Positions 1-1,760 of a stretch of DNA of 64,000 nt are shown here, in pieces. Position 1 is the first letter of the stretch, and every line of letters begins with the position of its first letter. The notes beneath the pieces are model-generated. The model was not told the DNA's origin. It worked only from the letters and a program-made list of their open reading frames with translations, and ran no database searches. The translations under genes and the position numbers were made by a program. The DNA is from Pseudomonadota bacterium (GTDB lineage Bacteria; Pseudomonadota; Gammaproteobacteria; Burkholderiales; Casimicrobiaceae): contig JBEPUI010000009.1 in NCBI GenBank assembly GCA_041691615.1, forward strand, positions 12,888 through 76,887, in the 5' to 3' direction.

Positions 1-463
1 TCGCGGCATCGCGCAGCATGGCGAGACCGTCCACGCCCTTGCCCTGGAATGCATACGGCGAAGTGCGCGGCTTGAACGCGCCGCCGCGCATCAGGCGCGC
101 ACCGCCGGCCGCCACGGCGTCGGCCGCCGCCGCCATCTGCGGCGGCGTCTCGACCGAGCACGGTCCGGCGATCACCTGCACGTCGTCACCGCCGAAACGC
201 GCGCCGCGCACGTCGACGACGCTGTTGGCCTTGTGCCACTCGCGCGCGACCAGCTTGTACGGCTTGAGGATGTGCAGCGACCGCTCGACGCCCGGCAGCG
301 GATCGAACATCTCGGGGTCGAGCTTGCGCTCGTCGCCGATGGCGCCGATCAGCGTGCGCTCGGCGCCGCGCGAGATGTGCACGTCGAGCCCGTGGCTTCG
401 AATGCGCGCGGCGACCGCGTCGATTTCCGCGCCGCCGGCATCGGGTTGCATCACTACGATCAT
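1..463 (-). CDS. aroF: 3-deoxy-7-phosphoheptulonate (DAHP) synthase, type I-beta with N-terminal regulatory domain; partial, runs off the window start
   Basis: Not in the ORF track (no stop in window). Manual translation from ATG 463: MIVVMQPDAGGAEIDAVAARIRSHGLDVHISRGAERTLIGAIGDE...IAGPCSVE...RGGAFKPRTSPYAFQG, which carries the type I-beta motifs. SD gaaggagg lies just upstream. Confidence 0.93.
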   Translation of the reverse strand, partial: MIVVMQPDAGGAEIDAVAARIRSHGLDVHISRGAERTLIGAIGDERKLDPEMFDPLPGVERSLHILKPYKLVAREWHKANSVVDVRGARFGGDDVQVIAGPCSVETPPQMAAAADAVAAGGARLMRGGAFKPRTSPYAFQGKGVDGLAMLRDAA

Positions 464-493
464 GTCGCCCTCCTTCATCAGGAACTCCGTGCA

Positions 494-528
494 CAAAACA
501 AAACGGGCGGCCTTTTTGGGGCCGCCCG
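494..528 (-). terminator. Rho-independent terminator (attenuator) upstream of aroF
   Basis: Minus strand reads cgggcggcc-ccaaaaa-ggccgcccg (9-bp GC stem) followed by ttttgttttg, about 30 nt before the aroF start. Confidence 0.85.
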
Positions 529-552
529 ATCGATGAAACTAATTCTGAAGAT

Positions 553-675
553 TTACGCGCGCGCGGTCCCCGGGAGTTGGCCCTTATAAAAATACGCGAC
601 GACTTGCCAGCGCGTGCTGCGCTGGGTCGAGATGCCGGATCGGGAGGCGCGCAACGGCGCCGAACGCGAGTTCAT
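553..675 (-). CDS. Putative 40-aa aromatic leader peptide MNSRSAPLRASRSGISTQRSTRWQVVAYFYKGQLPGTARA
   Basis: Manual translation from ATG 675 to TAA 553. Trp codon at 609-607 and Tyr-Phe-Tyr codons at 594-586, directly upstream of the terminator and aroF. Confidence 0.72.
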   Translation of the reverse strand: MNSRSAPLRASRSGISTQRSTRWQVVAYFYKGQLPGTARA

Positions 676-681
676 GGAGTC

Positions 682-711
682 AGTGTCGCATCAAAGCGCG
701 GAGCGCGTCAA
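682..711 (-). promoter_or_regulatory. Putative sigma70 promoter for a leaderless leader-peptide transcript
   Basis: TTGACG (711-706), 18-nt spacer ending TGC, GACACT (687-682), then 6 nt to the leader ATG. No SD before that ATG. Confidence 0.5.
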
Positions 712-1760
712 CGCACCTCGTTGCGCAGCCGGTCGAGCTCGCGCTCGATCGCTTCGGCGACGTAGGTCCGCAGCAGCTCGCCGACATGCTGGTTGATCGT
801 GGCCACCAGTTCGGCGCTGGCGCGATCGACGATGGGCTTGAGGCGCTCGCCCAGCTGCTCGCGCAGTCCGGTATCGGTGAACATGTCGATGCGCTGCAGG
901 ACCTGCATGCGCACTTCGTCGATCAGCTCCGCCGTCGATGCTGCGACAGCGCTCGATGCGGCGGCGCTGGACGCGGCTGCCGCCTCGGCGGCCGCGGCGG
1001 CGGCTCCCTGCGTGTCGTGCGCGCGCGCCCGGTCGATTTCGCGGCTGTCGGCAATCACCGCGATCGACTTCGGCGCGGGGCCCAGCACGCTGTCGTCGCC
1101 TTGCATCGCCTCGTCATTCCAGATCGACGGCACGCCTTCGTCGGCGGCGGCAATCAAGGCGGCATCGATTTCCTCGATGGCGTCGGTCAGCACCGGCACG
1201 TCGGCGAACGCCCTGGCGGCCGGTCGCGACGCATCGATCGCCACGAGCGGCGGCACATCGGCTACCGCGGGCGATTGCCACGACTGCGCGGGTTGCGGCA
1301 GCGAGGCCGACTCGACGCGAGCGGGCGCGTTGACGACCGGCGGCACGATGCGCGCTGCTTCGTAAGCCGGCCGGGAAACGCGCTCAGCCGGCGCGCGTGG
1401 CGACGGATCGTCAAGCACGTGCGGTTGCGGATCGTTCAATGCGCGCGCTGTCGATTGTGCACTCCCGTGCGCCGCAGTTTCGGGCGGCGCGCGAAGCGTG
1501 GGCTCGGTAGGCCCGTCGTTACCGTGCAAACGCGAATCGAGCGACGGTGAAGATGGGCTGGGGGTGTGGGCGGGGGCGGCCGGCGGCGATTGCATCGACT
1601 CGGTCAGCACCGGAAAATCGCCGGGCGCGGCCTTGCGCGTGGTGGTCATCGGCGCCATCGTCCGGGGCCCCATCGCCGGCGACATCGTGTCGCGCGCGCG
1701 GTTTCGCCGCATCAATGCATCGGCCTGTTCCAGCAGTTCTCGCGCAGAGGGCATCGTCAT
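708..1760 (-). CDS. Hypothetical protein, DUF2486-like; long Pro/Ala/acidic low-complexity linker and helical C-terminus
   Basis: 350-aa ORF overlapping the holC stop, with repeated PVLT(E/D) motifs. Position after holC matches the betaproteobacterial pepA-holC-DUF2486 order. Confidence 0.7.
   Translation of the reverse strand: MTMPSARELLEQADALMRRNRARDTMSPAMGPRTMAPMTTTRKAAPGDFPVLTESMQSPPAAPAHTPSPSSPSLDSRLHGNDGPTEPTLRAPPETAAHGSAQSTARALNDPQPHVLDDPSPRAPAERVSRPAYEAARIVPPVVNAPARVESASLPQPAQSWQSPAVADVPPLVAIDASRPAARAFADVPVLTDAIEEIDAALIAAADEGVPSIWNDEAMQGDDSVLGPAPKSIAVIADSREIDRARAHDTQGAAAAAAEAAAASSAAASSAVAASTAELIDEVRMQVLQRIDMFTDTGLREQLGERLKPIVDRASAELVATINQHVGELLRTYVAEAIERELDRLRNEVR

Follow-up and report, generated by a model that had tools for sequence, protein, structure and literature searches.

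A predicted ribosome-mediated attenuator with tyrosine and phenylalanine codons upstream of a DAHP synthase gene in Casimicrobiaceae

We analyzed the region preceding a gene for 3-deoxy-D-arabino-heptulosonate 7-phosphate (DAHP) synthase in a metagenome-assembled genome (MAG) of a Casimicrobiaceae bacterium (Burkholderiales) from freshwater sediment. The window, that is, the whole stretch of DNA analyzed, comprises 64,000 nucleotides (nt; contig JBEPUI010000009.1, positions 12,888 to 76,887), and all features of the putative attenuator lie on its minus strand and are given in window coordinates. In the direction of transcription, the region contains a −35-like hexamer TTGACG (706–711), an extended −10 element composed of TGC and GACACT (682–690), a leader open reading frame (ORF) of 40 codons (553–675), a segment complementary to the following terminator (segment 2, 557–571), an intrinsic terminator (segments 3 and 4, 494–528) and the aroF-type DAHP synthase gene (1–473), which begins with the ribosome-binding sequence GGAGG (473–469) and the start codon ATG at 463 and is cut by the window edge. 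The promoter, the 40-codon ORF with Trp23 and Tyr28-Phe29-Tyr30, the complementary segment, the terminator and the aroF ribosome-binding site were all found where the original prediction, made from the window sequence, had placed them.

The leader ORF extends from the ATG at 675–673 to the TAA at 555–553 and encodes the peptide MNSRSAPLRASRSGISTQRSTRWQVVAYFYKGQLPGTARA; because an in-frame TGA is located six codons upstream of the ATG, there is no longer ORF. The codons Tyr28-Phe29-Tyr30 (586–594) are TAT TTT TAT, in each case the rarer synonym, and four codons before Tyr28 there is a TGG codon for Trp23 (607–609), a possible additional sensing codon that varies among lineages. Comparison with relatives recovered 56 distinct orthologous leader peptides of 22–47 codons, the N-terminal parts of which are mutually unrelated. 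Conservation of the aromatic codons, on which the original prediction had been staked, is evident in this set: clustered Tyr and Phe codons were found in 55 of the 56 leaders each, for example as AYFY, GYFYF, YAYWYVF, FAYAFYFW, GFYYF or GWYFYY, while the rest of the peptide diverges. The earlier proposal that a single leader senses Trp, Tyr and Phe holds for Tyr and Phe, but not family-wide for Trp, which occurs in the cluster of 30 of the 56 leaders. Compared to the long ORFs of the genome, the leaders are enriched in Phe (7.0% versus 3.5%) and Tyr (7.8% versus 2.3%); Trp accounts for 1.7% versus 1.4%, with nearly all leader Trp codons inside the cluster. Judged from the codons, the conserved leader signal is Tyr/Phe, and Trp is a lineage-dependent addition that is present in the window. 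TTT makes up 43% of the Phe codons in the leaders versus 13% in the long ORFs of the window genome, and TAT 39% of the Tyr codons versus 29% genome-wide. Such rare synonyms at the regulatory codons could sharpen sensitivity; the rare CUA codons in the leu leader of Escherichia coli have a reported effect of this kind. Three leader peptides searched by exact look-up were absent from ~15 billion predicted proteins, in agreement with the original expectation that standard annotation misses the leader. One MAG contig (loci L012 and L076) has the aromatic codons in a different frame from the start codon, and a frameshift interrupts aroF after codon 10; both are probably indel errors of the long-read assembly, whose estimated completeness is low, rather than biology.

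The terminator consists of the 5′ arm CGGGCGGCC (528–520), the loop CCAAAAA (519–513), the 3′ arm (512–504) and the T-run TTTTGTTTTG (503–494). Its nine G-C pairs correspond to a hairpin energy of −19.8 kcal/mol, with an average of −24 kcal/mol among the orthologues, in which 9–12 pairs are followed by a T-run. The spacer between leader stop and terminator is 24 nt long in the window (529–552); in relatives, it is G-poor and variable, spanning about 23–49 nt. When 44 orthologues were aligned, 94% of the cells were paired in a 13-pair helix, all slid-register controls gave far lower values, and compensatory changes were observed in the three outer pairs. The distance from the terminator to the aroF ATG is 18–40 nt in nearly all leader-bearing loci, and in many of them it is 18 nt, an interval between T-run and ATG that contains the aroF Shine-Dalgarno sequence. 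This leaves no room for a separate promoter, so that expression of aroF requires read-through, and the claim of a terminator positioned just before aroF holds for nearly all of these loci. A repeat element as the source of the hairpin was ruled out, as CGGGCGGCC...GGCCGCCCG with the T-run is unique in the genome. At loci L132–L135, which come from other Burkholderiales families, a ACGGGCGGCC…GGCCGCCCGT core with a T-run forms ordinary gene-end terminators; this stem seems to be a generally favored terminator in Burkholderiales.

Segment 2, the candidate 5′ strand of an antiterminator, consists of GGGGACCGC followed by GCGCGC and is located 1–18 nt before the leader stop. GGGGACCGC (571–563) is complementary to GCGGCCCC (525–518) with one bulged A, and the window segment carries an inserted A relative to the orthologue core. 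This core, GGGCCGC, is nearly invariant in the orthologues, where 93% of the cells pair with GCGGCCC of the terminator 5′ arm. Most leaders read this core as xxG-GGC-CGC (…EGR…) and L013–15 as GGG-GCC-GCG (…PGAA…); in L043, L053, L075 and L107 it is located after the leader stop codon. By this comparison, segment 2 is conserved at the RNA level, whatever its reading frame. Its position is constrained as well: the last aromatic codon precedes the start of segment 2 by 8–17 nt (~14 nt in the window), and segment 2 either ends within about 5 nt of the leader stop, contains the stop or follows shortly after it. Segment 2 is the best duplex partner of the terminator 5′ arm in most leaders. We also folded the nascent RNA of 53 distinct leaders for a ribosome halted on the final aromatic codon, before synthesis of the terminator 3′ arm; in 53 of 53 folds the terminator arm paired with positions no more than ~20 nt from the leader stop in either direction, and with few exceptions upstream of it. 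A second candidate antiterminator helix, CCGAT/ATCGG, was rejected, as only 64% of it is paired column-wise, the lineages being shifted in register by one base; this helix seems to be real in one subgroup only. In genus g25 (L077 and L115–L118; genomes of 1.3–2.4 Mb with lower GC content), a leader of the form …YAYFYFYF/Y… is followed by GTCGGCGGC, a mimic of the terminator 5′ arm with the potential to pair with the 3′ arm, and the alternative pairing in this genus may differ from that in the rest of the Casimicrobiaceae.

Between the aromatic codons and segment 2, a small hairpin P1 (572–583) can form by pairing of GGG (583–581) with CCC (574–572). Among 47 leaders, the minimum free energy of the P1 region averaged −4.5 kcal/mol versus −1.9 kcal/mol for shuffled sequences and was better than the shuffles in 41 of the 47. 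The stems differ from leader to leader (CGGA/UCCG, GGGA/UCCC, CGGG/CCCG), with a complementarity of 54% within the same leader versus 26% across leaders. RNAalifold run on a MAFFT alignment gave no consensus for the P1 region, partly because MAFFT shifts registers across the variable loops. P1 may be a pause or anti-antiterminator element, in the role of the classical 1:2 hairpin.

At the promoter, TTGACG and GACACT are separated by an 18-nt spacer that includes the TG (TG at 690–689, hexamer at 687–682), and 6 nt (GACTCC) lie between GACACT and the leader ATG, with no Shine-Dalgarno sequence ahead of it. A simple sigma-70 consensus scan called no promoter at the window leader because GACACT lacks the consensus T1; the promoter became recognizable only through orthologue comparison. 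In the 55 distinct orthologous promoters, the −10 hexamer is TAGACT (39), TACACT (7) or a close variant, it is preceded by TGn in 52 of the 55, and in many loci a TTGNNN sequence is found 17–19 nt further upstream. The gap from the −10 hexamer to the start codon (ATG in 48 loci, GTG in 7) is 6 nt in 16, 7 nt in 37 and 8 nt in 2 promoters, too short for a Shine-Dalgarno sequence, which is missing from all 55. The original observation of a promoter ending a few nucleotides before the leader ATG applies to the entire set. This geometry suggests that the leader mRNA is probably leaderless, with transcription starting at ATG 675 or one base before. Two variant leaders differ at the start: L081 has a premature TGA and, overlapping it, an ATG (GCATGAGC) from which the aromatic frame resumes, and L070 has ACG at the start position and the next in-frame ATG four codons downstream. 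Both would require initiation away from the 5′ end.

To describe how the element is distributed, we used a covariance model of 44 orthologous loci spanning the region from the aromatic codons to the T-run. The model gave exactly one strong match (40–99 bits) per genome in ~65 of 151 Casimicrobiaceae genomes, belonging to four genera of this family of uncultured betaproteobacteria from soil and sediment. All 12 inspected strong matches from the other three genera are located immediately upstream of the orthologous DAHP synthase gene, and the leaders of the window's own genus, found by protein homology, are also directly upstream of it. No strong match was obtained in 392 genomes of other Burkholderiales families, where the best matches reached at most 38 bits and the inspected ones were ordinary gene-end terminators. 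Nine Casimicrobiaceae genomes without the element, from seven genera, were checked, and eight of the nine do not have this DAHP synthase orthologue. In Sulfuricella, Nitrosomonas, Methylophilaceae and Gallionella, the orthologue directly follows a hisC-like gene, with no leader. Conservation carries particular weight here, because an aromatic cluster before a terminator is not rare within one genome: the window genome contains 191 strict terminator-like hairpins with 108 short ORFs ending ≤70 nt upstream, and 4 of these 108 have at least three aromatic residues in four. A scan of the window genome for other leader-peptide attenuators, defined as single-amino-acid runs before a terminator, gave no convincing candidate.

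Taken together, these findings argue for ribosome-mediated transcription attenuation of the DAHP synthase gene through a leader peptide that senses Tyr and Phe and, variably, Trp; we estimate the probability of this interpretation to be roughly 80%. In the proposed mechanism, transcription from the extended −10 promoter would start at the leader ATG or one base before, yielding a leaderless mRNA, and a ribosome would translate the 40-codon leader while the RNA polymerase proceeds. When charged Tyr-tRNA and Phe-tRNA, and in this lineage perhaps also Trp-tRNA, are plentiful, the ribosome would reach the stop codon and cover segment 2 (571–557), allowing the terminator hairpin (528–504) to form and transcription to halt before aroF. 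Upon scarcity, the ribosome would stall at 594–586 and melt P1, leaving segment 2 free to capture the newly made terminator 5′ arm, so that no terminator forms and aroF is transcribed.

Several results weigh against this interpretation. The full 249-nt region (463–711) does not fold more stably than shuffled sequences (z = −0.74). Both strands of the antiterminator helix are near-invariant, covariation measures barely exceed those of controls, and only 1–2 double changes were found, of which one is clear (GAAGGC/GCCTTC in L077 versus GAGGGC/GCCCTC in its relatives); in addition, there are loop-dependent extensions of the helix, e.g. GCGGA/TCCGC in L009. Of the alternative pairing between 571–563 and the terminator arm that had been put forward originally, complementarity and geometry are thus conserved, but covariation is almost absent. 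RNAalifold did not recover the antiterminator helix from pre-terminator leaders, for which the register shifts in the MAFFT alignment are again partly responsible. Shuffled leaders reached terminator-arm pairing energies of −17 to −20 kcal/mol versus −21 to −25 kcal/mol for the real ones and, in the nascent folds, 8.1 versus 11.6 paired terminator-arm bases; in GC-rich RNA of this kind, substantial pairing to the terminator arm survives shuffling, so that energies alone prove little. No convincing 1:2 hairpin of the classical form was identified, P1 being the only and small candidate, so that an untranslated leader is predicted to read through. Other Burkholderiales families frequently carry hairpins of the GGGCGGCC type at the ends of ordinary genes, and the sequence conservation of the hairpin is therefore weak evidence when taken alone. 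The RNA sequencing runs found and the metatranscriptome contigs provided no coverage of positions 421–720.

Alternative explanations must account for the same features. The short ORF might be an independent gene for an aromatic-rich micropeptide, with the terminator before aroF being incidental; a conserved ORF with its own promoter, its own terminator and a conserved aromatic motif is what such a gene would look like. We regard this as improbable, since conservation is limited to the aromatic codons and the RNA motif, and in some lineages the latter shifts frame or falls outside the ORF. The ORFs range between 22 and 47 codons and have unrelated N-termini, the 18 nt before the ATG in many loci provide no space for a promoter of aroF itself, and the element is found only with this DAHP synthase.

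A second alternative accepts regulation by the leader and ascribes it to an arrest peptide of the TnaC type, in which free aromatic amino acids would be sensed in the exit tunnel and a ribosome arrested on the stop codon would keep segment 2 covered, enforcing termination under abundance. The fairly constant distance of ~8–11 codons from the aromatic cluster to the stop would suit such a mechanism, as would the many leaders that end in Arg-Pro-stop or Arg-x-Arg-stop, given that endings of this type can slow release (TnaC, Pro-stop contexts). These C-terminal residues, however, coincide with the conserved RNA segment and vary with the reading frame, and no conserved peptide motif exists besides the aromatic residues. 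In the four loci named above, segment 2 follows the stop codon, and simple attenuation by tRNA charging accounts for everything seen. We consider an arrest peptide improbable as well.

It is very unlikely that the hairpin is a plain terminator of the upstream 350-amino-acid (aa) gene, or an insulator, with the ORF a chance frame and aroF expressed by constitutive partial read-through. The 350-aa gene does end at 708 on the same strand without another terminator, three other short ORFs before terminators in the window genome contain a chance aromatic triplet, and other families use similar hairpins to terminate ordinary genes. A plain terminator would leave unexplained why ORF, frame, aromatic cluster and promoter are retained across 56 distinct sequences whose peptides otherwise drift, and why segment 2, useless to it, is conserved; moreover, the element tracks the DAHP synthase gene and not the upstream gene. 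Equally hard to credit is that the switch is operated by a ligand, by a tRNA or by a protein, as in riboswitch, T-box or TRAP-like systems, instead of by a translating ribosome: there are alternative pairings around a terminator, and segment 2 (GGGGACCGCG) bears a superficial likeness to part of the T-box sequence, but Rfam, including the T-box and all riboswitch models, gave nothing at E values up to 10, between the promoter and segment 2 neither sequence nor length is constant and there is no conserved structured aptamer, and the sole conserved upstream feature is the translated aromatic cluster in frame with the start codon. An Rfam cmscan of positions 1–2500 at E values up to 10, which also covered the leader families Trp_leader, Phe_leader and His_leader, yielded only chance-level matches far below the gathering scores.

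A leader-peptide attenuator of the DAHP synthase gene as proposed here has precedents among known systems. In Corynebacterium glutamicum, the aroR leader with a Phe-Tyr-Phe motif is located upstream of aroF and responds to Phe limitation (PMC11802643, PMC4046766), and the emphasis that the original prediction had placed on novelty is not upheld in view of this system (PMC11802643). Both leaders are short ORFs with mixed Phe and Tyr codons before a DAHP synthase gene, Phe-Tyr-Phe there and Tyr-Phe-Tyr here, and aroR operates by ribosome stalling, as is proposed for the present case. They differ in that C. glutamicum belongs to another phylum and has no detectable sequence relationship at this element, and the Casimicrobiaceae element is presumably an independent invention. 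The Casimicrobiaceae leader is also longer (22–47 codons), often contains Trp and is restricted to a single family of betaproteobacteria; the response to Phe limitation supports aroR experimentally, whereas the Casimicrobiaceae element is a prediction from sequence. A 2014 study by Neshat and colleagues is said to have described C. glutamicum attenuators as leaderless transcripts as well.

The classical enterobacterial leaders of pheL-pheA and trpL-trpEDCBA (Rfam Phe_leader and Trp_leader) have in common with the present element the codons for the end product, a terminator right before the structural gene, an antiterminator that shares the terminator 5′ arm and, as proposed here, masking of the antiterminator strand by a ribosome at the stop codon. 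In contrast to these leaders, which have a 5′ untranslated region (UTR) with a Shine-Dalgarno sequence, single-amino-acid runs and a well-defined 1:2 pause hairpin, the Casimicrobiaceae leader is predicted to have neither UTR nor Shine-Dalgarno sequence, contains mixed Tyr/Phe(/Trp) codons and only a small candidate hairpin in place of 1:2, and has no Rfam match. The uORFC-13-1 motif upstream of aroF in Acholeplasma, predicted by comparative genomics only (PMC8632094), resembles it in that an upstream ORF with Phe codons directly precedes a terminator ahead of a DAHP synthase gene. The Acholeplasma motif, however, includes a ribosome-binding site as well as a Phe-coding U-run, occurs in Mollicutes and is unrelated in sequence and structure. 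Leaderless attenuators have been mapped for trpL, leuL and ilvL of Streptomyces lividans (PMC8079986) and for the ilvB leader of Corynebacterium diphtheriae (PMC5784534). In these actinobacterial systems, transcription starts at the leader start codon, as predicted here, and a terminator hairpin follows. Their starts were mapped and leaderless mRNAs are common in the phylum (17–30% of transcripts), whereas the Casimicrobiaceae start is deduced from the conserved −10 element, and leaderless mRNAs in Proteobacteria are a small minority, with ~90 documented in Burkholderia cenocepacia, where the −10 box lies directly upstream (PMC4603805).

We found no description of this element in Betaproteobacteria in the literature. 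With odds only slightly better than even, it may represent the first leaderless leader-peptide attenuator family recognized in Proteobacteria, combining a cluster for several aromatic tRNAs with three segments and a minimal hairpin, where classical attenuators have four segments, and independently reinventing the actinobacterial aroR design; the ribosome would then load on the 5′-terminal AUG or GUG of the nascent RNA. If the start is confirmed, the element would be a clear-cut example from Proteobacteria of a leaderless mRNA subject to attenuation and would be useful for studying transcription-translation coupling independent of a Shine-Dalgarno sequence. Independently of the start, the analysis adds a well-defined, family-wide cis-regulatory element, represented by 56 distinct sequences from four genera and absent from Rfam, and would imply that mixed aromatic leader-peptide control of the shikimate entry step arose in Betaproteobacteria besides Actinobacteria. 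Annotators gain a covariance model and a naming rule for the small ORF. The understanding of attenuation as such is unchanged; this would be a known mechanism in a new group.

The regulated enzyme, completed from the assembly (G000:C9), has 352 aa and belongs to the type I-beta DAHP synthases with an N-terminal ferredoxin-like regulatory domain, as in Thermotoga maritima. Pfam identified PF18152 (DAHP_snth_FXD, E = 1.9e-22) followed by PF00793 (DAHP_synth_1, E = 1.4e-71), and the T. maritima enzyme (1RZM/3PG9) matches over the full length with E = 4e-94. Enzymes of the T. maritima type are feedback-inhibited chiefly by Tyr and Phe. A second DAHP synthase gene, encoding a type I-alpha enzyme (AroG/F/H-like, ~350 aa), lies outside the window (G000:C36:741-1871), and neither a leader ORF nor a terminator was found upstream of it; a type II enzyme is not encoded in the window genome. 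The organism thus has two DAHP synthase isoenzymes, presumably under different control. Control at the first step of the shikimate pathway, as originally claimed, is borne out in so far as the leader precedes a DAHP synthase gene, but because the second enzyme is leader-free, the leader would govern one isoenzyme and not the whole entry step.

In some relatives, the leader is decayed or lost (L054, L056, L060, L121 and L122, as well as L055, L057 and L068). The promoter and the ORF are deleted and the terminator is kept in L056, L121 and L122, with L121 also keeping part of segment 2; in L055, L057 and L068, no intergenic region separates aroF from the 350-aa gene before it, and the two are presumably co-transcribed. 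The downstream neighbor of aroF is valS, which has its own TATAAT box, so that aroF appears to be monocistronic. Upstream of the leader are pepA, holC and the 350-aa gene (708–1760, minus strand), which is located between holC and the leader and encodes an Ala/Pro-rich product with no Pfam match. Its stop codon TGA (710–708) overlaps the −35 hexamer of the leader promoter, and the C-terminus of the protein (…YVAEAIEREI/LD…W/LR) is kept in relatives. In E. coli, pepA, holC and valS are adjacent; in Casimicrobiaceae the holC-valS interval holds the 350-aa gene and aroF.

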